From NCBI RefSeq assembly GCF_965641715.1, contig NZ_OZ282453.1: a DNA stretch of 64,000 nucleotides; one strand, written 5' to 3'. Position numbers and translations under genes: made by a program. Source of the DNA: Escherichia coli. GTDB lineage: Bacteria > Pseudomonadota > Gammaproteobacteria > Enterobacterales > Enterobacteriaceae. Under the pieces are notes generated by a model. The model was not told the DNA's origin and searched no databases. It saw only the letters and a program-made list of their open reading frames with translations. Shown here piece by piece: positions 6,668 to 64,000 of the stretch (within the stretch, counting starts at the first letter, position 1; each line of letters begins with the position of its first letter).

Positions 6668-6702
6668 ATGCTCTGGATAAGGATTATCCAATTCTAAAAA
6701 AA

Positions 6703-6733
6703 AGCCCGGACGACTGTTCGGGCTTGTCTTTTT
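6703..6733 (+). terminator. Rho-independent terminator after ydbK
   Basis: Hairpin agcccgga-cgactgtt-cgggct followed by tgtcttttt. Confidence 0.7.
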
Positions 6734-7032
6734 ATATGTTGGAAAATCAGTGGCAATGCAATGGCCCAACAGAAAATAAAATCTGTGACAATAAAGGCAT
6801 ATAACCCGCGCAGAATAACTCATAGAAAATTAAAAGTATAATTTTTATTTTGTATGTATTATCTTCGATACATTCACCAGACTTATTATCATTTCAGAGG
6901 AATTATTTGATTAAGGTTTTACTTAAGGCGTAACAAATGATATTTATCGGCTAACTGAACTTCTCCTTTAGGATGTTTTCACTCCCCGAAATGGGGATAA
7001 AAGGCAAATAAAATAACTAAAGGATTTATTCA

Positions 7033-8166
7033 ATGAAAAGCAAAGTACTGGCACTTTTAATTCCTGCCCTGCTCGCCGCAGGTGCTGCACATGCAGCCGA
7101 AGTTTATAATAAAGACGGCAACAAATTAGATCTGTATGGCAAAGTTGATGGCCTGCATTATTTTTCTGATAATTCAGCGAAAGATGGCGACCAGAGCTAT
7201 GCGCGTCTGGGTTTTAAAGGCGAAACCCAAATTAACGATCAACTCACTGGCTACGGTCAATGGGAATACAATATTCAGGCAAACAACACTGAATCTTCAA
7301 AAAACCAGTCATGGACCCGTCTGGCATTTGCCGGACTGAAATTTGCAGATTACGGTTCTTTCGATTACGGACGTAATTATGGCGTAATGTACGACATCGA
7401 AGGCTGGACCGATATGCTGCCTGAATTTGGCGGTGACTCTTATACCAATGCAGACAACTTTATGACTGGTCGTGCCAATGGCGTCGCGACTTATCGTAAT
7501 ACTGATTTCTTCGGTCTGGTAAATGGTCTGAACTTCGCGGTGCAGTATCAAGGTAACAACGAAGGTGCCAGTAATGGTCAGGAAGGCACCAACAACGGAC
7601 GTGATGTTCGCCATGAAAACGGTGACGGCTGGGGTCTTTCCACAACATATGATTTAGGCATGGGCTTTAGCGCTGGTGCGGCATACACCTCTTCTGACCG
7701 CACCAATGACTAGGTTAACCATACTGCGGCGGGTGGTGATAAAGCAGACGCGTGGACTGCTGGGCTAAAATACGATGCTAACAATATTTACCTGGCAACC
7801 ATGTATTCAGAAACGCGTAATATGACCCCGTTTGGCGACAGCGATTATGCTGTTGCAAACAAAACCCAGAACTTTGAAGTCACTGCACAGTACCAGTTTG
7901 ATTTTGGTCTGCGTCCGGCAGTCTCTTTCCTGATGTCTAAAGGCCGTGACCTGCACGCTGCCGGTGGTGCAGACAACCCGGCAGGTGTTGATGATAAAGA
8001 TCTGGTTAAATACGCCGATGTTGGCGCGACTTACTATTTCAATAAAAACATGTCCACTTATGTTGACTATAAAATCAACCTGTTGGATGAAGATGACAGT
8101 TTCTACGCTGCCAACGGCATCTCTACCGATGATATTGTCGCTTTAGGTCTGGTTTATCAGTTCTAA
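7033..8166 (+). pseudogene. ompN: Outer membrane porin OmpN interrupted by an in-frame amber codon (TAG at 7711-7713)
   Basis: ORFs 7033..7713 and 7801..8166 are one reading frame; porin signal peptide [21 protein letters not shown] and C-terminal ...LGLVYQF; the frame continues ...[40 protein letters not shown]... across the stop. Confidence 0.8.
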
Positions 8167-38172: not shown

Positions 38173-38328
38173 TTACTCCTCAGGTTCGTAAGCTGTGAAG
38201 ACAGCGACCTCCGTCTGGCCGGTTCGGATTCGTACCTCGCAGAGGTCTTTCCTCGTTACCAGTGCCGTCACAATGACGGTTAAACAGATGACGATCAGGG
38301 CGATTAACATCGCCTTTTGCTGCTTCAT
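38173..38328 (-). CDS. hok: Hok-family type I toxin
   Basis: 51 aa MKQQKAMLIALIVICLTVIVTALVTRKDLCEVRIRTGQTEVAVFTAYEPEE matches the Hok/Gef family (HokD-like); RBS GGAGG upstream. Confidence 0.92.
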   Translation of the reverse strand: MKQQKAMLIALIVICLTVIVTALVTRKDLCEVRIRTGQTEVAVFTAYEPEE

Positions 38329-38385
38329 AGACTGCTCCTCCTTGCCTTTCGGCACGTAAGAGGCTAACCTATGTGTGTAGAGCAT
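38173..38385 (-). CDS. mok: Mok (overlapping reading frame that couples hok translation)
   Basis: 70 aa ORF MLYTHRLASYVPKGKEEQSMKQQ... extending upstream in the hok frame, as in hok/mok/sok loci. Confidence 0.6.
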   Translation of the reverse strand: MLYTHRLASYVPKGKEEQSMKQQKAMLIALIVICLTVIVTALVTRKDLCEVRIRTGQTEVAVFTAYEPEE

Positions 38386-38400
38386 AGATATGGCCTCAGA
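38330..38400 (+). ncRNA. sok: Predicted Sok-like antisense RNA region (boundaries not determined)
   Basis: Inferred from the hok/mok architecture only; not mapped by sequence. Confidence 0.3.
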
Positions 38401-38699
38401 TTAATGTTAAGCGTCTTGCAGGACGCGTAATGTTAACTGGGGCTTTTCTCTGTCTGCCTTACAGTGGCATGCCCGAGGCAGACAGCCTCAAGCACCCGCA
38501 GCTATTCTACTTAACTATCCTTTTCCCGCAAATCGTTTTATCCTCAACGCAAATTTCACCAATCCCCCCCCAACTCGTGTCCCTTACCCTCAGGCTGTTT
38601 CCCTCTTTACACAGAAGATAATTAATGTATTGTTTTTTACAAACAATCAGTTAAGAGCTATCTGTGGGTGGAGTCGCCTTGCGGTAGCTTTTCCTTTTA

Positions 38700-51851: not shown

Positions 51852-52078
51852 GCGCAGCCATAAAGCTCACAGGAGAAAAACCAGTGCTATACACAAAAGT
51901 CAAACCATGTCCGTTTTGTGGTTGTCCATCAGTAACGGTGAAAGCCATTTCAGGATATTACCGCGCAAAGTGTAACGGATGCGAATCCCGAACTGGCTAT
52001 AGTGGAAGTGAAAAAGAAGCACTCGAAAGATGGAATAAACGAACTACTGGAAATAATAATGGAGGTGTTCATGTATAA
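51842..52078 (+). CDS. lar: Lar/RalR-like restriction alleviation protein
   Basis: Small protein with zinc-finger CPFCGC...CNGC; position between exo and xis as in Rac. Confidence 0.65.
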
Positions 52079-52259
52079 AATTACCGCCACTATTGAAAAG
52101 GAAGGTGGCACTCCTACTAAATGGACAAGATATTCAAAATCTAAACTAACGAAATCAGAATGCGAAAAAATGCGCTCAGGTAAAAAAGAAGCAGGCGTTT
52201 CCAGAGAGCAGAAAGTAAAACTGATAAATTTTAATTGCGAGAAACGTCAGTCCTCGTGA
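52059..52259 (+). CDS. YdaC-like small protein
   Basis: ORF 52002..52259 with probable internal start ([17 protein letters not shown]...); Rac gene order. Confidence 0.4.
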   Translation: MEVFMYKITATIEKEGGTPTKWTRYSKSKLTKSECEKMRSGKKEAGVSREQKVKLINFNCEKRQSS

Positions 52260-52575: not shown

Positions 52576-53811
52576 ATGTCTAAATTACCAACAGGTGTCG
52601 AGATTAGAGGTAGATACATTCGCATCTGGTTCATGTTTCGAGGAAAACGATGTCGGGAAACATTAAAAGGCTGGGAGATTACAAACAGTAATATTAAAAA
52701 GGCCGGAAATTTAAGAGCGCTGATAGTTCATGAAATAAACTCCGGTGAATTTGAGTATTTAAGACGTTTTCCCCAGTCCAGCACTGGGGCAAAAATGGTG
52801 ACAACGAGAGTCATAAAAACGTTCGGGGAGCTTTGTGATATCTGGACAAAAATTAAAGAGACAGAGTTAACAACAAACACAATGAAGAAAACGAAATCAC
52901 AATTAAAAACACTCAGAATAATAATTTGTGAAAGTACCCCGATATCACATATTCGTTATAGCGATATCTTAAACTACCGGAATGAACTGCTGCATGGAGA
53001 AACGCTTTACCTGGATAATCCAAGATCCAACAAAAAAGGAAGAACCGTGCGCACAGTTGATAACTATATCGCCCTGCTCTGTTCGCTGTTACGTTTTGCG
53101 TATCAGTCGGGATTTATATCAACCAAACCATTTGAAGGAGTAAAAAAATTACAGCGAAACAGAATAAAGCCTGATCCGTTATCTAAAACAGAATTCAATG
53201 CATTAATGGAAAGTGAAAAAGGACAGAGCCAAAACTTGTGGAAATTTGCCGTTTACTCAGGACTTCGTCACGGGGAACTGGCAGCTCTGGCGTGGGAGGA
53301 TGTGGATCTCGAAAAGGGAATAGTGAATGTCAGAAGAAACCTGACGATACTTGATATGTTCGGTCCCCCAAAAACAAATGCCGGGATCCGGACAGTAACA
53401 CTACTGCAGCCTGCTCTTGAAGCACTGAAGGAGCAATACAAACTGACCGGACATCATCGCAAAAGCGAAATCACCTTTTATCATAGGGAGTACGGCAGAA
53501 CCGAAAAGCAAAAACTGCATTTTGTTTTCATGCCCAGGATGTGTAACGGAAAACAGAAACCTTATTACTCGGTAAGCAGTTTGGGGGCAAGGTGGAATGC
53601 AACAGTAAAACGTGCTGGTATTCGCCGCCGTAATCCGTACCATACGCGGCATACTTTTGCCTGCTGGCTGTTGACGGCAGGAGCGAACCCGGCATTTATA
53701 GCCAGCCAGATGGGGCATGAAACTGCGCAGATGGTGTATGAAATTTACGGTATGTGGATTGATGACATGAACGACGAACAGGTAGCCATGTTGAATGCGC
53801 GGTTATCGTAG
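52576..53811 (+). CDS. int: Tyrosine site-specific integrase (IntR-like)
   Basis: 411 aa; C-terminal catalytic region with HxxR and Tyr (...YHTRHTFACWLL...MGHETAQMVYEIY); adjacent to the att core in ttcA. Confidence 0.93.
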   Translation: MSKLPTGVEIRGRYIRIWFMFRGKRCRETLKGWEITNSNIKKAGNLRALIVHEINSGEFEYLRRFPQSSTGAKMVTTRVIKTFGELCDIWTKIKETELTTNTMKKTKSQLKTLRIIICESTPISHIRYSDILNYRNELLHGETLYLDNPRSNKKGRTVRTVDNYIALLCSLLRFAYQSGFISTKPFEGVKKLQRNRIKPDPLSKTEFNALMESEKGQSQNLWKFAVYSGLRHGELAALAWEDVDLEKGIVNVRRNLTILDMFGPPKTNAGIRTVTLLQPALEALKEQYKLTGHHRKSEITFYHREYGRTEKQKLHFVFMPRMCNGKQKPYYSVSSLGARWNATVKRAGIRRRNPYHTRHTFACWLLTAGANPAFIASQMGHETAQMVYEIYGMWIDDMNDEQVAMLNARLS

Positions 53812-54926: not shown

Positions 54927-56300
54927 TTATTTTAATAACCGCACCCGGCACGTTTTTCCTTTAATCTTCCCGCCCTGTAACTGTTTCCATGCTTTATGAG
55001 CAACAGCCTGACGGACCGCGACATAGACATGCGCCGGATGCACGGCGATTTTGCCAATATCTGCGCCATCAAGCCCGATATCTCCTGTCAGTGCACCTAA
55101 TACATCACCCGGGCGCATTTTGGCTTTTTTCCCGCCATCGATACACAACGTTGCCATTTCTGCTTCCAGCGTCACAATGGAACTATTAGCTGGCGGCGTT
55201 TGCCAGTTAAGTTTTATCTGCAACATGTCAGAAATGATATTGGCCCGCTGTGCTTCTTCCGGAGCACAGAAACTGATCGCCAGACCGCTATTTCCTGCAC
55301 GAGCTGTACGACCGATGCGATGTACATGAACTTCAGGGTCCCACGCCAGCTCAAAGTTCACCACCAGCTCAAGCGATTTAATATCCAGACCACGCGCAGC
55401 AACATCAGTCGCGACCAGTACACGGGCGCTACCGTTAGCAAAACGTACCAGGGTCTGATCGCGATCGCGTTGCTCCAGATCGCCGTGTAATGACAATGCA
55501 CTTTGCCCTACTTCATTCAGCGCGTCGCAGACAGCCTGGCAATCTTTTTTGGTATTGCAAAACACCACGCAAGAGGATGGCTGATGCAAGCTTAATAACC
55601 GTTGCAACAGAGGAATTTTGCCTTTGCTGGATGTCTCATAAAATTGTTGTTCAATGGGTGGCAAAGCATCTGTTGAGTCAATTTCAATCGCCAAAGGATC
55701 GCGTTGCACTCGTCCGCTGATTGCAGCGATGGCTTCCGGCCAGGTTGCCGAAAACAGAAGCGTCTGTCGAGATGCAGGCGCAAAACGGATGACATCATCA
55801 ATGGCATCGCTAAATCCCATATCCAGCATGCGGTCGGCCTCATCCATCACCAAAGTATTCAGCGCATCCAGTGATACCGTGCCTTTTTGCAAGTGATCCA
55901 GCAAACGACCCGGCGTTGCCACGATAATATGCGGCGCATGTTGCAACGAATCACGCTGCATACCGAACGGTTGACCACCGCACAACGTCAAAATTTTGGT
56001 ATTTGGCAGAAAACGCGCCAGCCGACGCAATTCACCTGCCACCTGATCCGCCAGTTCACGCGTAGGACACAGCACTAAAGCCTGGGTTTGAAATAGCGAC
56101 GCATCAATTTGCTGTAACAAGCCGAGGCCAAAAGCCGCCGTTTTGCCGCTGCCGGTTTTCGCCTGCACGCGAACATCTTTTCCGGCAAGGATCGCCGGAA
56201 GCGCGGCGGCCTGCACCGGCGTCATGGTTAAATAACCCAACTCATTAAGGTTCGTGAGTTGGGCGGGAGGCAAAACATTCAGGGTAGAAAAAGCGGTCAC
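54927..56300 (-). CDS. dbpA: ATP-dependent RNA helicase DbpA (DEAD-box)
   Basis: 457 aa with Walker A AKTGSGKTAAF, DEAD box, SAT and HRIGRTAR motifs. Confidence 0.96.
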   Translation of the reverse strand: MTAFSTLNVLPPAQLTNLNELGYLTMTPVQAAALPAILAGKDVRVQAKTGSGKTAAFGLGLLQQIDASLFQTQALVLCPTRELADQVAGELRRLARFLPNTKILTLCGGQPFGMQRDSLQHAPHIIVATPGRLLDHLQKGTVSLDALNTLVMDEADRMLDMGFSDAIDDVIRFAPASRQTLLFSATWPEAIAAISGRVQRDPLAIEIDSTDALPPIEQQFYETSSKGKIPLLQRLLSLHQPSSCVVFCNTKKDCQAVCDALNEVGQSALSLHGDLEQRDRDQTLVRFANGSARVLVATDVAARGLDIKSLELVVNFELAWDPEVHVHRIGRTARAGNSGLAISFCAPEEAQRANIISDMLQIKLNWQTPPANSSIVTLEAEMATLCIDGGKKAKMRPGDVLGALTGDIGLDGADIGKIAVHPAHVYVAVRQAVAHKAWKQLQGGKIKGKTCRVRLLK

Positions 56301-56503: not shown

Positions 56504-56777
56504 ATTTCCCTCCGGTCATTGGGTGGACTCTTAAAGGGTAGACGCTGATAAATAACAGGCAAAAAAAAGCCGACTCATCAAAGTCGGCGTCGTACGAATC
56601 AATTGTGCTATGCAGTAATTCAAAAAAGGAAGTAAGACAATATGGAGCGCAACGCCCATCGCTTGACGTTGCATTCACCTGCAAGAGAGATATTGCCCTG
56701 AATGGGTAGAGAGTTTATTGACTTCGCTCAAACTTTGCGGCGTTTTTGTATACAGACAGCCGGAAAAATTGCTTTTG

Positions 56778-57782
<1,005 letters not shown>

Positions 57783-58014
57783 TTATTTTGTAGTCTAGCC
57801 TTCTGGCCCTGTTACGCAACATCTCATCACCCCATTACCCTGAAATGATTAATAAAATTCTGTCTAAATTGAATACAAAAAGCAAAATGCTTTTCCGTAT
57901 ACAAACCGTGTGAAGTGTTAAATAGCGTCTATCATTATCAGAATTATCTGATCATATGACGTGCTTTTTTGCGATCGGATAGCAACAAAAATTGATAAAA
58001 ATAACGGGATCTCA

Positions 58015-59247
58015 ATGATTACGCACAACTTCAATACCCTGGACTTACTCACCAGTCCTGTCTGGATCGTTTCGCCCTTTGAGGAACAGTTAATTTATGC
58101 CAATAGCGCGGCGCGACTGTTGATGCAAGACCTCACGTTTAGTCAGCTACGAACCGGTCCCTATTCCGTCTCCTCACAAAAAGAACTGCCGAAATACCTC
58201 TCCGATCTGCAAAACCAACACGATATTATCGAAATCCTCACTGTTCAGCGTAAAGAAGAGGAAACAGCATTAAGCTGTCGGCTTGTTTTGCGAGAGCTGA
58301 CAGAAACAGAACCGGTGATTATTTTCGAAGGTATCGAAGCGCCGGCAACGCTGGGGTTAAAAGCCAGTCGCTCGGCAAATTATCAGCGCAAAAAACAAGG
58401 TTTTTATGCGCGCTTTTTTCTGACTAACTCTGCACCAATGTTGTTGATTGACCCGTCACGAGATGGACAAATCGTCGATGCTAACCTCGCCGCGCTCAAT
58501 TTCTATGGTTATAACCATGAAACGATGTGCCAAAAACATACCTGGGAAATAAATATGCTCGGGCGTCGCGTCATGCCTATCATGCATGAAATTTCGCATT
58601 TACCCGGCGGTCATAAACCTTTGAATTTTGTTCATAAACTGGCGGATGGATCTACTCGTCATGTGCAGACCTATGCCGGACCGATTGAAATTTATGGCGA
58701 CAAGCTCATGTTATGTATTGTGCATGATATTACTGAGCAAAAACGGCTGGAGGAGCAGCTGGAACATGCTGCTCACCATGACGCGATGACCGGATTACTG
58801 AATCGGCGACAGTTTTATCACATTACGGAACCAGGCCAAATGCAGCATCTCGCCATCGCTCAGGATTACAGCTTGTTGCTCATCGACACCGATCGTTTTA
58901 AACACATTAACGATCTCTATGGGCATTCTAAAGGTGATGAGGTGTTATGCGCCCTCGCCCGTACCCTCGAAAGTTGCGCTCGCAAAGGCGATTTGGTGTT
59001 TCGTTGGGGAGGCGAAGAGTTTGTCTTATTGCTACCAAGAACCCCACTGGATACCGCGCTTTCGCTGGCTGAAACTATCCGCGTAAGCGTGGCAAAAGTG
59101 AGTATTTCGGGCTTACCACGCTTTACCGTCAGCATTGGTGTGGCGCATCACGAAGGAAATGAAAGCATCGATGAACTGTTTAAACGCGTTGATGATGCTT
59201 TGTATCGGGCGAAAAATGATGGACGCAACCGCGTGCTGGCGGCATAA
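58015..59247 (+). CDS. dgcM: Diguanylate cyclase DgcM (PAS-PAS-GGDEF)
   Basis: ORF 57961..59247; start at MITHNFNTLDLL; GGEEF active-site motif (RWGGEEF). Confidence 0.93.
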   Translation: MITHNFNTLDLLTSPVWIVSPFEEQLIYANSAARLLMQDLTFSQLRTGPYSVSSQKELPKYLSDLQNQHDIIEILTVQRKEEETALSCRLVLRELTETEPVIIFEGIEAPATLGLKASRSANYQRKKQGFYARFFLTNSAPMLLIDPSRDGQIVDANLAALNFYGYNHETMCQKHTWEINMLGRRVMPIMHEISHLPGGHKPLNFVHKLADGSTRHVQTYAGPIEIYGDKLMLCIVHDITEQKRLEEQLEHAAHHDAMTGLLNRRQFYHITEPGQMQHLAIAQDYSLLLIDTDRFKHINDLYGHSKGDEVLCALARTLESCARKGDLVFRWGGEEFVLLLPRTPLDTALSLAETIRVSVAKVSISGLPRFTVSIGVAHHEGNESIDELFKRVDDALYRAKNDGRNRVLAA

Positions 59248-59267: not shown

Positions 59268-59831
59268 TCAACGACTGCGCTTAGCGTGGCGCTCCCAGTT
59301 TTCTTGCTTCGCCTGCGCCGTTTTACGTAGTGCGACGTAACACGCCCCGCTGCCGCCATGATGCGGTAGCGCGGTGCAATATGCCTGAACATCATCAAAT
59401 TCGGTCAGCCAGCGCGCCACATAGCTGCGGACAATATTGGCATGCGATTTATCATCCCGCCCTTTACCATGAATAATCAGCACGTTACGCAAACCATCCG
59501 CCAGGGCTTGTTGAATAAAACTGAACACCATTTTGCGGCACTCTTCCACCGGCTGGCGCAAAAGATTCAGGCTCGCCTGTTGCGGATATTTACCACTGCG
59601 CAGCTTATCCAGCACCCCATGTTGCAACCCTTCCCGCCGAAACTCCAGCGGCTGACTTAGCGGGATAATGTCGAGAAATCCGGTGGTGAGGAAATTATCA
59701 AGCTGCAGCGTGTCGATACGCTGCGGCGCACGTTGGTTACGCGTTGGATGCCAGTGGACATCTGTAGCACGTTTCAGCGGCTGGACATCTTCCATGGCGT
59801 CAAGAAACAGCGATTTGTCGTCAAGGTTCAT
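59268..59831 (-). CDS. smrA: Smr-domain endonuclease SmrA
   Basis: 187 aa with C-terminal Smr domain (...LIIHGKGRDD...); K-12 gene order. Confidence 0.9.
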   Translation of the reverse strand: MNLDDKSLFLDAMEDVQPLKRATDVHWHPTRNQRAPQRIDTLQLDNFLTTGFLDIIPLSQPLEFRREGLQHGVLDKLRSGKYPQQASLNLLRQPVEECRKMVFSFIQQALADGLRNVLIIHGKGRDDKSHANIVRSYVARWLTEFDDVQAYCTALPHHGGSGACYVALRKTAQAKQENWERHAKRSR

Positions 59832-60025
59832 GTAACCTCCTATGCACCTTCACACGTCGTGATTCAGACGGGTTAATTGTTCATACTTACTGCATCGTTC
59901 CCTTCACAGATTGAAACAATACTCTACTTCATACCTGTGAGTATCTGCGCAGGCGGGGCATTTTATACTAGCCTGTTAGCAGTATCGAACAGTTTAGCCC
60001 GAGTTTAATTCAGCACAGGCTCCGA

Positions 60026-61540
60026 TCAGGATGATTTATTCATAGCAGGAACCAACAAAAATGCGATAAATAACAGACCACTGATTAGCAGAAAGGTATC
60101 CGAAAATGCCATAGTTTGCGCCTCCCTCAGCATCAATTGACTCAATAATTTGGTTGAAGCCAGTATTTCCGATGTCTGGTCACTTCCACTGCGATTAAAA
60201 AATAAAGCACTTCTGGAAATGAAGTCATTCACCGTATGGGGAACAGAAACCATTTTTTCACCCATTCTCGAAAAATGAAAATTAGTTCGATTATTGAGAA
60301 TAGAGCCACACAGGGCAATACCAATCGCGCCCCCAAGATTACGTGTTAAATTAAATACACCAGAGGCTAACTTCAGCCGTTCTTTTGGAATTCCCCCCAG
60401 CGTTAATGTTACGATGGGGGCCATCGCAAACTGCTGCGAAATCCCTCTAATTGCCTGTGGAAACAGTAACTCCTGCCATCCCCATTCGTGGGTTATAGGG
60501 GTAAAAAGATACATTGAAAACACAAATCCGCCCAGCCCCGCCATCAACAGCCATCGCAGATTTATTTTTTTACTTAACCAGAAGTAAAAGGGAACAGAAA
60601 ATAACTGGAAAATACCTGTTGTGCAAACGGCAAAACCTATCTCTTCGGCATTTAATCCGCGAATCTGCCCCAAAAACACAGGTATTAAATATACAGTAGA
60701 GAATATCCCAACCCCTCCAGAAAAAGAAAAAAAACATCCCAGAGTGAAATTTTTATCCTTAAAAGCATGAAGATCCATTATCGGACTGGATATTGTAAGT
60801 GTACGCGCAGCAAATAAAATAAAACTCACCAATGCCAGAACTGATGTCAGCAAAATAGTATTATCATCCAGCCATCCCCAGCGCGCTCCTTCTTCAAGGG
60901 TATATTCCAGACATCCCAGTGTCATGGCCAACAGGATAATACTCGGATAATCAGCAACTTTCAGTAAAGAGAGGTCAGGTTTATCAAAATTAACCAGAAA
61001 AGGAATACTCAAAACTAAATATATGCCAGGTAATATATTGATATAAAATAGCCATCGCCAGTCGAGGTTATCAGTGATCCAGCCCCCCAGAGTTGGCCCT
61101 AGCGTCGGTGACAGTGAGGCCAGCGCACTGACTACCGCAGCAGCCAACCCCAACTCTTTACCCTGGTAATAAATAAACGCCGTCGTGAAAACTAAAGGGA
61201 TCATGGATGCGCCAGCAGCTCCCTGTAAAGCACGAAACAAAATCATGATCTGAATATTCCATGCAAGTCCACACGCGATACTCATTAAAGTAAATATTCC
61301 CGCGGATAGAGTAAAAAGCCAACGAGTGGAAAATACCCGTGACAGCCACCCAGAGAGCGGAATAACAATAATCTCAGCAATTAAATAGCTGGTCTGAAGC
61401 CAGGCCATTTCGTCTTTACCTGCGGACAGACCACCACCTATTTCATTTAGGGATGACGATACAATTTGAATATCAAGCTGAGCAATAAATAATCCCATAC
61501 ACATACTGGCGAAAGCAATATGTTTACGCATAGACATCAT
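60026..61540 (-). CDS. MFS efflux transporter, 14-TMS EmrB/QacA-type
   Basis: 504 aa polytopic membrane protein with MFS motifs; shares a 4-nt overlap with the upstream HlyD-family gene. Confidence 0.85.
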   Translation of the reverse strand: MMSMRKHIAFASMCMGLFIAQLDIQIVSSSLNEIGGGLSAGKDEMAWLQTSYLIAEIIVIPLSGWLSRVFSTRWLFTLSAGIFTLMSIACGLAWNIQIMILFRALQGAAGASMIPLVFTTAFIYYQGKELGLAAAVVSALASLSPTLGPTLGGWITDNLDWRWLFYINILPGIYLVLSIPFLVNFDKPDLSLLKVADYPSIILLAMTLGCLEYTLEEGARWGWLDDNTILLTSVLALVSFILFAARTLTISSPIMDLHAFKDKNFTLGCFFSFSGGVGIFSTVYLIPVFLGQIRGLNAEEIGFAVCTTGIFQLFSVPFYFWLSKKINLRWLLMAGLGGFVFSMYLFTPITHEWGWQELLFPQAIRGISQQFAMAPIVTLTLGGIPKERLKLASGVFNLTRNLGGAIGIALCGSILNNRTNFHFSRMGEKMVSVPHTVNDFISRSALFFNRSGSDQTSEILASTKLLSQLMLREAQTMAFSDTFLLISGLLFIAFLLVPAMNKSS

Positions 61541-62568
61541 CTCTCATCAACACTGACGGTGACGGACAGTCCCGGGCGAAGAAGTTGCTTTAATTCCTTT
61601 GCGTCGTCAAATGCAATCCGTACCGGGACACGCTGAACAATTTTGGTGAAATTGCCAGTGGCATTTTCTATCGGAATCAAGCTGAAACTAGCTCCTGTCG
61701 CTGGGGAAAGGCTTTCAATGTGACCGTGAAACACTTCCCCTTTGAGAATATCAGCACGGATCTCAGCCTTCATTCCAGGCTTCATTCCCGCTATTTGGTT
61801 TTCTTTATAATTTGCATCAACCCACAACTCACTGACTGGTACTAGTGAAACTAACGATGTGCCGCCTTCCACCCAACTGCCTGTATGGGCGCTGCGGTTT
61901 GCGACAATGCCATCAATCGGCGCACGAACAAGGGTAAATTCCAGATCCAGTAGTGCCTGAGTCAAAGCGGCCTGAACTTCTTCGATACTCGCACGTACGT
62001 TTTCTTCCTGAGCAGATAAAACTGCCAGCCGTTGCTTCTCCACCAGGAAATCGTTCGCGGCTTTGCGCTCCTTTGCTGCGACCTGCTGGTAGTCAAACCT
62101 GGCGTTATCAATAATTTGTTGCGATATTGCCGCTGATTGTGCGAGTTTTTCATAACGTTCAGTATCTCGCAGGCGCTTTTGCTCCTCATGTTTTACTGCC
62201 TGCCATGTTTCACTTGCACTTTGAATTATCGACTGCTGCATCGCAATAGTGGCTTGAATGCTTTCGAGATTGGCTTTGCTACTTTTTATTTTTGCCTCAA
62301 GCCTGGCGACATTTGCACGATAATCCCGATCATCGAGACGCAGGATAATATCGCCTTTTTTTACGCTCTGATTATCGCGCACCTCTATAGCAGAAATATA
62401 ACCAGAAACTTTACTTGCCACCGTGGTGATATTACCACCAATGTAAGCATCATCCGTCGTCTGTATAAATCTTCCTTTGCTTACCCACCAGATAAAAAAG
62501 ACAACGCCAGTCAAAAGAATACCGATCGCTACCACCCCAATAAGCTGTTTTTTAGAAATTATCATCAC
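61537..62568 (-). CDS. HlyD/EmrA-family membrane fusion protein
   Basis: 343 aa with N-terminal TM anchor, coiled-coil and beta-barrel regions typical of EmrA-like adaptors. Confidence 0.85.
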   Translation of the reverse strand: MMIISKKQLIGVVAIGILLTGVVFFIWWVSKGRFIQTTDDAYIGGNITTVASKVSGYISAIEVRDNQSVKKGDIILRLDDRDYRANVARLEAKIKSSKANLESIQATIAMQQSIIQSASETWQAVKHEEQKRLRDTERYEKLAQSAAISQQIIDNARFDYQQVAAKERKAANDFLVEKQRLAVLSAQEENVRASIEEVQAALTQALLDLEFTLVRAPIDGIVANRSAHTGSWVEGGTSLVSLVPVSELWVDANYKENQIAGMKPGMKAEIRADILKGEVFHGHIESLSPATGASFSLIPIENATGNFTKIVQRVPVRIAFDDAKELKQLLRPGLSVTVSVDER

Positions 62569-62661
62569 TCTTTACACCGTATATATCCGGAAACTTGCAT
62601 ACGTCATATTTAAAATTTAACATGGCTTATTTGATGATTTCTGACAAAATACCTACTGTAA

Positions 62662-63477
62662 ATGACAATTACACTGCAACCCAAAGCATCACCAGGGCAT
62701 CACATTATCGGACTGGATTCGGAACATCTGAATGGAGGTACAGTTCCCTGGCATAAACATCTCTATGCCCAGTTGCTTTACCCGGCTGAAGGAGTCGTTC
62801 GTGTATGGGCTGGAGAAAGCGTCTGGCTAGTCCATGCCAGCAGCGCGCTTTGGCTGCCCCCACAAATGCCGCATAAGTTTGTTGCGACAGGCAACGTACT
62901 TTTAAAAACCGTACTGGTTTCAGAAGCGGAAAGTGAAACGCTGGGAACAGTTTGCTTCATGACGGGTATTTCACCCCTGTTAAGGGAATTACTAATTGCA
63001 ATTAACCAACTTCCACCGTCGCAAAGTACCACAGATAAACAACAGTTACGTTTTTCAGCCCTCGAGACACTGATACTTCAGGAAATAAAAATGGGGGTGA
63101 AAATGTCACTTGAACTCCCTTGGCCAAATGATGAGCGGCTACAGCAGCTTTGTGAGAATTTGCTAAACAACCAAGGGTATCTGCCAACACTGGATAATCT
63201 AGCGGATAAAATTAACGTCAGTAGCCGTACACTCATGCGCTTATTTGTTAAAGAGACGGGATTAACATTTCGCCACTGGGTTCAGCAAATGCACGTTATT
63301 TCTGCAGTGACGCTTCTTGATGATGGATATTCGTTGACCAAAATTGCCCATCGTCTGGGCTATGCCTCAGCTGAATCGTTCGGCAATATGTTTAAGCGTC
63401 GAACGGGCTACTCGCCAGGTAAATTTACTCGTCGATTAACAATGCATGATTATGCAATCACAAGACAAATGATTTAA
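62662..63477 (+). CDS. AraC-family transcriptional regulator (cupin plus HTH), divergent from the efflux operon
   Basis: 271 aa with C-terminal AraC HTH (...IAHRLGYASAESFGNMFKRRTGYSPGKF). Confidence 0.85.
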   Translation: MTITLQPKASPGHHIIGLDSEHLNGGTVPWHKHLYAQLLYPAEGVVRVWAGESVWLVHASSALWLPPQMPHKFVATGNVLLKTVLVSEAESETLGTVCFMTGISPLLRELLIAINQLPPSQSTTDKQQLRFSALETLILQEIKMGVKMSLELPWPNDERLQQLCENLLNNQGYLPTLDNLADKINVSSRTLMRLFVKETGLTFRHWVQQMHVISAVTLLDDGYSLTKIAHRLGYASAESFGNMFKRRTGYSPGKFTRRLTMHDYAITRQMI

Positions 63478-64000
63478 CTTATATTTTCGTGAAATCTGTC
63501 ACTGAAGAAAATTGGCAACGGATGGGTAAAACCGTTATAACACTGTCACCGGTCACCAGGACCCCAGGCCGGATTTAAGACGAGGATGCACTGCTGTGTG
63601 TACTGTAGAGTCTGGCGGATGTCGACAGGCTCTATTTTTTTATTCATTTTTTAGCTCTGTAAATAACCACATTCTCGCCGGGGTTGGGGAATGAGTGACG
63701 AGATCAGTGGTGTCTGGCGGCTATCACGCCACAGAATCAAATAACAGATAGCCTACGGTAAAATTTCGCTGACTGGAATTATCCCACCCTCGACCCATGT
63801 GATGGCTTGCCCTCATTTCTTCAGGCAGAAAAATCAAAAAATCGCTTTATGCTATCAGACTGCGACAAACCAGACGCGAAACTGGGTACTTACTATTCGT
63901 TAGTCTTGCCCTATCCGCTTATCTTTTTGGTGGTATGGCTGCTGATGTTGCTGGCGTGGTATCTTGTTGGTCTGCCGATAGGTCCGGGGATTTACCCACG

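Follow-up and report, generated by a model that had tools for sequence, protein, structure and literature searches.

Escherichia coli K-12 carries the genes smrA, mcaS, abgR, abgA, abgB, abgT, and ogt in this order, whereas in the 64,000-nt stretch of E. coli DNA analyzed here (contig NZ_OZ282453.1; hereafter the window) three further genes lie beside smrA, which raises the questions of what these genes encode, whether they were gained by some strains or lost from K-12, and whether the system that they encode still works. The original prediction, which correctly gave K-12 the abg genes beside smrA, proposed that an EmrAB-like efflux pair with a divergent AraC regulator may be a strain-variable insertion at this locus. 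The reading favored here, with a probability of roughly 0.7, is that the three genes form a horizontally acquired accessory efflux cassette with an EmrAB-like mechanism, which was inserted once and then spread.

The distribution of the module among complete E. coli genomes supports strain variability. A module shared by K-12 and the majority of E. coli would speak against an insertion of this kind, but comparison of the locus across genomes gave a different picture: the module is missing from K-12, and some part of it occurs in 1457 of 5426 genomes (about a quarter of strains); at least 80% of the module is present in 1316 genomes, and the other 141 carriers hold less than 80%. K-12 is matched only over a 159-bp stretch that covers mcaS and its upstream region. 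Strain names legible among the carriers include ST131, ST38, Nissle 1917, and ATCC 25922. A scan of genome contigs did not find the module in representatives of E. albertii, E. fergusonii, and E. marmotae, a result that is only suggestive because the scan used exact peptide words. Two high-identity records are labeled as plasmids, both from E. coli, one of 4.9 Mb (evidently a chromosome) and one of 252 kb; no genuine plasmid was identified as a carrier, and the remaining matches of the plasmid search, at most 63% identical, come from other phyla, where they lie on megaplasmids or chromids.

Gene content of the inserted segment

The predicted EmrAB-like pair and divergent regulator are all present as open reading frames (positions 60,026–63,477 of the window; Table 1), and they lie in a segment of lower GC content than its flank (44.1 vs. 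50.2%) that stands where the smrA-mcaS spacer of the K-12 type has 111 bp, as judged by BLAST against K-12. A repeat scan found no direct or inverted terminal repeats and no target duplications at the borders of the segment (59842/63441), and none of the three ORFs encodes an integrase, transposase, or recombinase; the insert therefore lacks the hallmarks of a mobile element.

Table 1. Features of the smrA-mcaS-abg region of the window (positions in nt).
Feature	Position	Strand	Evidence
smrA (DNA endonuclease SmrA), core gene, left flank outside insert	59268..59831	-	NF033154, 252.8 bits vs. cutoff 180
194-nt spacer, pump stop codon to smrA start codon	59832..60025	-	Terminator scan, RNA fold
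Inserted segment, 3,600 bp	59842..63441		BLAST vs. K-12, GC content, repeat scan, outgroup comparison
DHA2-family MFS efflux permease (pump), 504 aa, intact ORF	60026..61540	-	TIGR00711, Pfam MFS_1, PDB EmrB match
Periplasmic adaptor (membrane fusion protein), EmrA-like, 343 aa from GTG	61537..62568	-	Pfam, NCBIfam, PDB, hydropathy
Putative divergent promoter/operator region, 93 bp	62569..62661		Alignment of four intergenic regions; hexamer scan
AraC/XylS-family regulator, N-terminal cupin sensor domain, 271 aa	62662..63477	+	Pfam HTH_18, AraC_binding
McaS/IsrA sRNA gene, native right flank	63548..63643	+	Rfam RF00115, 112.8 bits, gathering score 42
abgR 3'-end remnant, decayed, 75% identical to K-12 abgR	63644..63862	-	Sequence comparison with K-12
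abgT 3'-end remnant, runs off window end	63862..64000	+	Comparison with K-12, deletion junction

The pump belongs to the DHA2 family of efflux MFS transporter permease subunits (TIGR00711; 401.5 bits vs. a cutoff of 230.2), which it matches end to end, with residues 9–496 aligning to profile positions 3–480 of 485. A crude hydropathy scan gives about 12 clear hydrophobic segments, the last of which (residues 482–500) follows a long loop, as in EmrB; the antiporter motif LGPTLGG is present, its G-P-x-x-G-G aligned with that of EmrB. The adaptor, for which RefSeq places the start at an ATG at 62565 (342 aa), overlaps the pump gene by 4 bp (ATGA, adaptor stop and pump start codon). It belongs to the membrane fusion protein/HlyD superfamily, having biotin-lipoyl-like and beta-barrel domains (HlyD_D23, 67.5 bits; HlyD_3, 61 bits; Biotin_lipoyl_2, 41.3 bits, all above the Pfam cutoffs) and an N-terminal anchor, which is the single transmembrane segment in the hydropathy profile (residues 9–27). 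The segment neither contains nor adjoins an outer-membrane factor gene.

The regulator combines a cupin sensor domain (AraC_binding, 34.7 bits vs. 21.1; Cupin_2, 29.7 vs. 27.2) with a following HTH_18 domain (78 bits vs. 33.6), the architecture of an AraC/XylS-family protein, and reaches no NCBIfam equivalog cutoff. Between the regulator and adaptor genes, promoter-like hexamers occur on both strands, and alignment of four intergenic regions revealed a block (consensus AAAATTTAACATGGCTTATTTGATGATT) that is conserved with cassettes of Kluyvera and Salmonella.

Relation to EmrAB and to cassettes of other genera

EmrB and EmrA are the closest solved structures to the pump and the adaptor, with nearly full-length matches (PDB 8zal_J, E 5.8e-55, and E 6.9e-43, respectively). 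The cassette resembles EmrAB-TolC (PDB 8zal/8zar) in pairing a DHA2 permease, presumably of the 14-TMS type, with a single-anchor adaptor encoded just upstream, and in both systems the gene for the outer-membrane channel lies outside the operon. Identity, however, is only 28.6% for the pump and 32.6% for the adaptor, and the scores fall far below the equivalog cutoffs: the pump reaches 216.3 bits against 925 for the EmrB orthologue model NF000391, and the adaptor 205.7 against 563 for the EmrA equivalog NF011715. The leading families for the adaptor are EmrA/EmrK (TIGR00998), its best NCBIfam match, and MdtN, both with full-length alignments but below their cutoffs (266.3 bits vs. 390.8 and 162 vs. 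376), so that only the generic adaptor model TIGR01730 is passed (130.4 vs. 94.9). Because of the shortfall against the EmrA/EmrK and EmrB models, the cassette is judged on sequence not to be an orthologue of EmrAB. The two also differ in that EmrAB is core in E. coli and the cassette accessory, and in regulation: EmrR, which regulates EmrAB, is of the MarR type, whereas the cassette has a divergent AraC/cupin protein.

Nearer relatives occur in other genera. Kluyvera cryocrescens, Salmonella enterica, and Providencia rettgeri carry the same three genes in the same divergent layout, each at an unrelated locus, with amino-acid identities of 70–82% (about 82% for the pump, 70–79% for the regulator); the pump ORF is colinear with a 505-aa homologue of Kluyvera. 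The Salmonella cassette lies near an RTX/T1SS locus and the Providencia cassette near toxin-antitoxin genes, and a cassette of K. intermedia adjoins ychF-pth, unlike the smrA-mcaS site of E. coli. Because the divergent arrangement has been kept as a unit at unrelated loci, together with the conserved intergenic block, a link between regulator and pump is supported. In Citrobacter, Hafnia, and other genera the orthologue was seen as the pump protein only, and no orthologous cassette of another genus was found to bear a specific name. A more distant operon in Paraburkholderia (MarR-adaptor-DHA2-OMF) encodes a pump 51–52% identical to that of the cassette, with the adaptor immediately upstream; the locus examined has its own OMF gene and a MarR regulator in place of AraC, whereas the cassette has neither OMF nor MarR gene. 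In Acinetobacter, an AraC homologue (43% identical) is paired with an MFS protein of 12-TMS size and no adaptor. The cassette is an ordinary accessory efflux system, with no hint of new biochemistry.

Insertion, abg deletion, and spread

Whether the module was gained here or lost from K-12 is decided largely by outgroups. In Citrobacter rodentium, C. koseri, and Salmonella, ogt lies directly beside smrA and the module is missing, and the 100 bp upstream of smrA in K-12 align with these Citrobacter and Salmonella outgroups (z 3.9–8.7; 0 of 300 shuffles), whereas the corresponding region of the window does not (z 0.6–1.3); in the window, smrA itself is 99.5% identical to K-12 and K-12 homology stops about 10 nt upstream of its ATG. 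The 111 bp that were replaced thus carry the native smrA upstream region, conserved in both outgroup genera. At the other border, codons 261–271 of the AraC gene (63442–63477) consist of native E. coli spacer DNA homologous to K-12, and regulators of the cassettes in other genera (259–262 aa) lack this 11-residue tail and end where K-12 homology starts, which indicates that the insertion clipped the 3' end of the gene and fused it to 11 local codons.

An ancestral module deleted from K-12-type strains could account for an open 12-codon stretch of K-12 (MHDYSFTILIM*) in frame with the AraC tail, and for the same architecture in E69, a divergent Escherichia lineage (about 91% identical). Set against the outgroup alignments, the outgroups that lack the module, the tail missing from homologues elsewhere, the low GC content, and a synonymous divergence 3–8 times lower in the module than in flanking core genes, this history is very improbable and largely refuted. 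A search of the K-12-private 111 bp against the module, for the homology that such a deletion would leave behind, returned only chance 7–10-mers. On these comparisons the module is a true, derived insertion and not a K-12 loss, in agreement with the original prediction.

The same prediction implied a swap of abg for the module, which was not borne out. The module sits between smrA and mcaS, and the abg genes are affected by a separate deletion, with its junction at 63862, in which 5,040 bp (abgR'-abgA-abgB-abgT') are gone at a CCAGAC microhomology; the same junction is found in A30, ST131, Nissle 1917, and E69, and the equivalent of the abgR remnant is called a LysR pseudogene by RefSeq in A30. 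A single exchange of the abg operon for the module would fit the joint occurrence of the module and the loss of abg, seen both in the window and across 1171 genomes, in which a query spanning the abg deletion junction was covered to at least 80%, as well as the reported absence of abgAR from phylogroup B2 (Touchon et al., 2009, Table 5, PMC2617782). It is nonetheless refuted, and barely credible, given that an intact mcaS (with its 106-bp upstream region) and the 219-bp abgR remnant lie between the two lesions, that the abg deletion has a microhomology junction of its own, and that about 285 genomes (e.g., WCHEC96200) hold the module together with complete abgRABT; because of these genomes, insertion and abg loss are regarded as separate events. 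Beyond the reported absence of abgAR from B2, literature searches found no account of the module or of how the smrA/mcaS/abg locus varies; matches to "abgR" in the text of phylogroup papers proved to be the surname Abgrall.

Insert junctions are identical in every carrier examined. Together with the divergence values, they show, at the level of sequence, a single insertion into the spacer between smrA and mcaS in an ancestral Escherichia, and point to a later spread of haplotypes by homologous recombination. In this history, a low-GC 3.6-kb segment entered the spacer once, a separate deletion later removed abgR'-abgT', and haplotypes then passed between Escherichia lineages, with the pump inactivated in some. 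Several changes are thus superimposed at a single intergenic hot spot (gain of abg, insertion of the cassette, deletion of abg, and secondary decay of the pump), which makes the locus a clean illustrative case, with datable junctions and a polarity given by outgroups.

Pump decay, probable function, and native neighbors

The module is under purifying selection (dN/dS 0.04–0.17; 0.04–0.08 relative to Kluyvera and Salmonella, 0.10–0.16 relative to strain E69), and its ORFs are uninterrupted in the window, A30, WCHEC96200, and ST131. In Nissle 1917, ATCC 25922, and strain 400625 the pump is inactivated by an internal deletion of 1,843 bp, in E69 by a T8-to-T7 frameshift, and in Shigella flexneri by a C-terminal frameshift, which yields truncated proteins. 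This repeated inactivation, together with a dN/dS within Escherichia above that of the flanking core genes (0.06–0.39 vs. 0.00–0.06), suggests that selection is weak. Even in A30, WCHEC96200, and ST131, the pump gene is annotated by RefSeq as frameshifted and as a pseudogene; this flag looks like an annotation artifact of the reference chosen, because the pseudogene ends at exactly the stop codon that terminates a truncated protein of S. flexneri (WP_162471458.1, ...AFSVPFC). On the translated loci and this shared stop, the flag was rejected for these strains.

A decaying relic, with the pump no longer working in most carriers and the cassette slowly being lost, would be consistent with the recurrent lesions (with the internal deletion shared by the three strains), the 141 carriers of incomplete modules, the elevated dN/dS within Escherichia, and the RefSeq label taken at face value. 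It is quite unlikely, however, in view of the unbroken 504-aa ORF in the four backgrounds named above, the colinearity of the pump with Kluyvera homologues and with TIGR00711 from end to end, the apparent origin of the label in its reference, and the clearly purifying dN/dS of 0.10–0.16. The favored reading, an accessory efflux cassette, has consequences for surveys of efflux: ST131, the lineage that dominates clinically, carries the cassette in apparently intact form, as do other extraintestinal E. coli, efflux inventories based on K-12 miss it because K-12 lacks the module, and screens of resistomes and pan-genomes probably overlook it because of the systematic pseudogene label on the pump gene.

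By homology, the adaptor and a 14-helix DHA2 MFS proton antiporter would be made from one translationally coupled operon and, by analogy with EmrAB, would engage an outer-membrane channel whose gene lies elsewhere (presumably TolC) to expel hydrophobic or amphipathic compounds across both membranes; the divergent AraC/cupin protein is predicted to sense a small-molecule ligand and to control the 93-bp promoter region. Expectations about substrate, inducer, and TolC dependence derive from the roughly 29–33% identity to EmrB and EmrA. Export of a metabolite that is endogenous or specific to a niche (e.g., a fatty acid, a signaling molecule, or a compound derived from bile), possibly without TolC, in place of xenobiotics is rather unlikely but would suit several features: a dedicated ligand-sensing regulator where the Paraburkholderia operon has a MarR-type repressor, the lack of an outer-membrane factor gene in the cassette, the enrichment of the module in host-associated lineages such as ST131, and the adaptor-less Acinetobacter pairing. 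The periplasmic adaptor, however, implies that the substrate crosses the outer membrane by way of a channel, and the sequence offers nothing to tell metabolite export from multidrug efflux.

With the insertion, smrA lost its conserved upstream region, including the presumed promoter, and came to lie 194 nt beyond the end of the pump gene; at the other border, 70 nt separate the end of the AraC gene from the transcription start of mcaS downstream. A scan of the minus strand found no intrinsic terminator in the pump-smrA spacer (fold z −0.68, no hairpin with a U-run), so that read-through from the pump gene into smrA is possible. A rewiring of the native neighbors is unlikely; under it, expression of the SmrA endonuclease would follow the inducer of the efflux operon in module-carrying lineages, ST131 included, and the biofilm and motility sRNA McaS might be affected as well. 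Efflux, DNA processing, and biofilm control would in that case be coupled, in a way that is not seen in K-12.

An EmrAB-like efflux cassette beside smrA

The segment upstream of smrA carries a real, strain-variable, horizontally acquired cassette, an uncharacterised representative of a well-known type, EmrAB-like efflux. The original prediction of an EmrAB-like pair with a divergent AraC regulator beside smrA proved correct in every particular, as judged from the ORFs, their domain matches and low-identity matches to solved structures. The DHA2 efflux model TIGR00711 covers the 504-aa pump end to end (401.5 bits; cutoff 230.2), and the nearest solved structure is E. coli EmrB (E 5.8e-55; 28.6% identity). 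The 343-aa adaptor has a single, N-terminal hydrophobic anchor and HlyD/membrane-fusion domains; its top NCBIfam match is the EmrA/EmrK adaptor family, its nearest solved structure is E. coli EmrA (E 6.9e-43; 32.6% identity), and its stop codon overlaps the pump ATG by 4 bp. In the 271-aa regulator, a cupin/AraC_binding domain precedes an AraC-type double HTH.

Homology and operon layout suggest that an EmrAB-type assembly would be built from the adaptor and the DHA2 antiporter. There is no OMF gene among the three ORFs of the cassette, and the outer-membrane channel would be encoded elsewhere, presumably as TolC; in contrast, the Paraburkholderia operon examined, 52% identical, has both an OMF gene and a MarR regulator. 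The AraC/cupin protein probably controls the 93-bp divergent promoter region in response to a ligand: regulator and pump stay paired from genus to genus, and E. coli, Kluyvera and Salmonella share a conserved intergenic block.

In each E. coli locus examined that has a full-length pump gene, RefSeq/PGAP flags that gene as "frameshifted"; the flagged sequences nevertheless align with the window without gaps and encode 504 aa. The annotated pseudogene stops where a truncated S. flexneri protein, WP_162471458.1 (...AFSVPFC), has its stop codon; the choice of that protein as reference has probably produced the flag as an artefact.

Coordinates of features in the window and of flagged pump genes in other E. 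coli loci
Feature	Coordinates	Strand	Remark
MicC	6688-6808		flanks prophage
tRNA	34785-34856		within prophage
sok antitoxin RNA	38323-38497		within prophage
RalA antitoxin sRNA	52077-52255		within prophage
Integrase-size ORF	52576-53811		beside ttcA
dbpA	54927-56300	-	last 10 kb of window
FnrS sRNA	56565-56682		between dbpA and zntB; flanks prophage
zntB	56778-57761	-	
dgcM	57961-59247	+	
smrA	59268-59831	-	
Pump ORF, 504 aa	60026-61540	-	DHA2 efflux model TIGR00711
Adaptor ORF, 343 aa	61537-62568	-	HlyD/membrane-fusion domains
Regulator ORF, 271 aa	62662-63477	+	cupin/AraC_binding, AraC-type double HTH
McaS	63548-63643		Rfam McaS, 112.8 bits
Flagged pump gene, A30	L001 12186-13641		equivalent to window 60026-61540
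Flagged pump gene, WCHEC96200	L010 6044-7499		equivalent to window 60026-61540
Flagged pump gene, ST131 strain	L018 6560-8015		equivalent to window 60026-61540

Insertion at the smrA-mcaS interval and its distribution

In K-12, smrA is followed by a 330-bp spacer with mcaS inside it and then by abgR, abgA, abgB, abgT and ogt, in agreement with the original statement that the abg genes lie beside smrA there. Colinearity of the window with K-12 (99.2%) extends to 59841, which is some 10 nt upstream of the start codon of smrA; the following 3,600 bp (59842-63441) have no K-12 counterpart and occupy the place of 111 K-12 bases. From 63442 K-12 homology returns, with an overall identity of only 81%, across mcaS and a 219-bp piece from the 3′ end of abgR; the window then skips 5,040 bp of K-12 and passes at 63862 to the last 139 bp of abgT (97%). 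The alignment thus contains two distinct lesions: the insertion, placed between smrA and mcaS, and a deletion that runs from abgR′ through abgA and abgB to abgT′.

Comparison across 5426 complete E. coli genomes, as had been proposed, upheld the suggestion of a strain-variable insertion, and outgroup polarity agrees: some part of the module is present in a minority (1457/5426) that does not include K-12, and at least 80% of it in 1316. The abg block occurs in 4192 of the 5426 and the window's abg deletion junction in 1171. With a chimeric query in which the AraC 3′ end is followed by K-12 mcaS-abgR, module and abg were found together in about 285 genomes, of which WCHEC96200, with complete abgRABT, is an example. 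Three haplotypes thus emerge: the K-12 type in ~3900 genomes, module plus abg in ~285, and the module alone in ~1170. Module carriers include strains labelled ST131 and ST38. Touchon et al. (2009, Table 5; PMC2617782) listed abgAR as absent from phylogroup B2, which fits the abg-deleted haplotype of an ST131 strain and Nissle 1917; the window's flanks are closer to K-12 (99.1-99.5%) than to ST131 (97.4-98.5%), which suggests that this haplotype extends beyond B2.

Four independent lines agree in favouring insertion of the module over its loss by K-12. First, smrA directly adjoins ogt in Citrobacter rodentium, C. koseri and Salmonella (at about 7200-8000 in loci L020, L021 and L022), where both abg and the module are absent; a McaS homologue lies between them in C. 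koseri (L021 7662-7756, 59 bits). This adjacency suggests that the Escherichia lineage gained the abg operon as well, and insertions appear to have targeted the ogt-smrA interval repeatedly. Second, the 100 bp upstream of smrA in K-12 align with their outgroup equivalents (65-70 identical positions, z 3.9-8.7; none of 300 shuffles scored as well), whereas the window's 100 bp show no alignment with the same regions (z 0.6-1.3); K-12 has therefore kept the ancestral region, which the insert replaced in the window. Third, K-12 homology restarts exactly at codon 261 of the AraC ORF, the point at which the homologues of Kluyvera, Salmonella and Providencia end (259-262 aa), and the last 11 codons of the E. 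coli protein (MHDYAITRQMI) are read from local spacer DNA (63442 onward). Fourth, GC content is 44.1% in the insert (GC3 39-42%) vs. 50.2% in the flank. No terminal repeats, recombinase or transposase were found at the insert borders.

Origin, spread and maintenance of the cassette

The trio occurs as a unit, with AraC divergent to adaptor-pump, at unrelated loci in Kluyvera cryocrescens, Salmonella enterica (adjoining an RTX/T1SS locus) and Providencia rettgeri (close to toxin-antitoxin genes). The K. intermedia contig, on which adaptor and pump adjoin ychF-pth, stops inside the adaptor gene, leaving the regulator beyond view. Pump homologues about 82% identical, generically named throughout, are also found in Citrobacter, Hafnia, Pluralibacter, Serratia, Yokenella and Klebsiella. 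Pump identity falls from 99% (Escherichia, Shigella) to ~83% with nothing between, which points to an unsampled donor. No genuine plasmid among the PLSDB records was found to carry the cassette; NZ_CP134663.1, a 4.9-Mb E. coli "plasmid" with the module, is evidently a misfiled chromosome. An AraC homologue of Acinetobacter wuhouensis (L016 4668-6771; 43% identical) is divergent to a 404-aa MFS transporter, with no adaptor, which suggests that coupling to MFS exporters is general in this regulator subfamily.

E69, a divergent Escherichia lineage filed under E. coli (flanks 84-94% identical), shares both its insert junctions and its abg deletion junction with the window. Synonymous divergence from the window is several-fold lower in module genes than in flanking core genes, both for E69 (0.09-0.17 vs. 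0.33-0.88) and for WCHEC96200 (0.02-0.03 vs. 0.07-0.10). The abg deletion junction is a CCAGAC microhomology common to the window, A30, ST131, Nissle 1917 and E69. Most simply, the module was inserted once and abg was deleted once, after which the haplotypes moved between lineages, presumably by homologous recombination. The abgR remnant (63644-63862) matches the working abgR genes of K-12 and WCHEC96200 at just 75% identity, although the adjacent mcaS reaches ~97-99%. Taken together, the abgR and abgT remnants also vary strongly from carrier to carrier, with 87% identity between the window and Nissle 1917 and extra 20-bp and 12-bp deletions. Such divergence is greater than expected within E. 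coli.

The dN/dS values of the module (0.04-0.08 against Kluyvera and Salmonella, at long range; 0.10-0.16 against E69) show purifying selection, although weaker than on the core genes nearby (0.01-0.06). Each of the three ORFs is unbroken in the window, A30, WCHEC96200 and one ST131 strain. Pump or adaptor has been inactivated independently by a deletion and by frameshifts in E69 and S. flexneri. An identical 1,843-bp deletion (window 60452-62294) in Nissle 1917 (L019 5060-5689) and strain 400625 (L011 5277-5906) joins the pump gene to the adaptor gene but spares the AraC gene; ATCC 25922 (FDA strain Seattle 1946) has a matching 46% coverage pattern. The S. flexneri frameshift is C-terminal and removes the last transmembrane helix, and that of E69 is a T8-to-T7 change at window 60727-60734. 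This T8 run, on the coding strand, is possibly a slippage-prone on/off site.

Neighbouring genes and other features of the window

Through the insertion smrA lost an upstream region (K-12 counterpart L002 7890-8000) whose sequence is conserved in Citrobacter and Salmonella. The pump gene is now upstream of smrA, 194 nt away and on the same strand, and terminator scanning and folding revealed no recognisable terminator in the spacer (59832-60025); smrA may therefore be co-transcribed with the efflux operon, which could drive its expression. On the other side, the stop codon of the AraC gene is 70 nt upstream of the mcaS start, the 106 bp upstream of mcaS (63442-63547) are kept, and no terminator is predicted between the two genes; read-through from AraC to mcaS is conceivable. 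Co-transcription of smrA and read-through to mcaS are leads rather than established results. Most of the window is occupied by a Rac-like lambdoid prophage (about 9900-53811).
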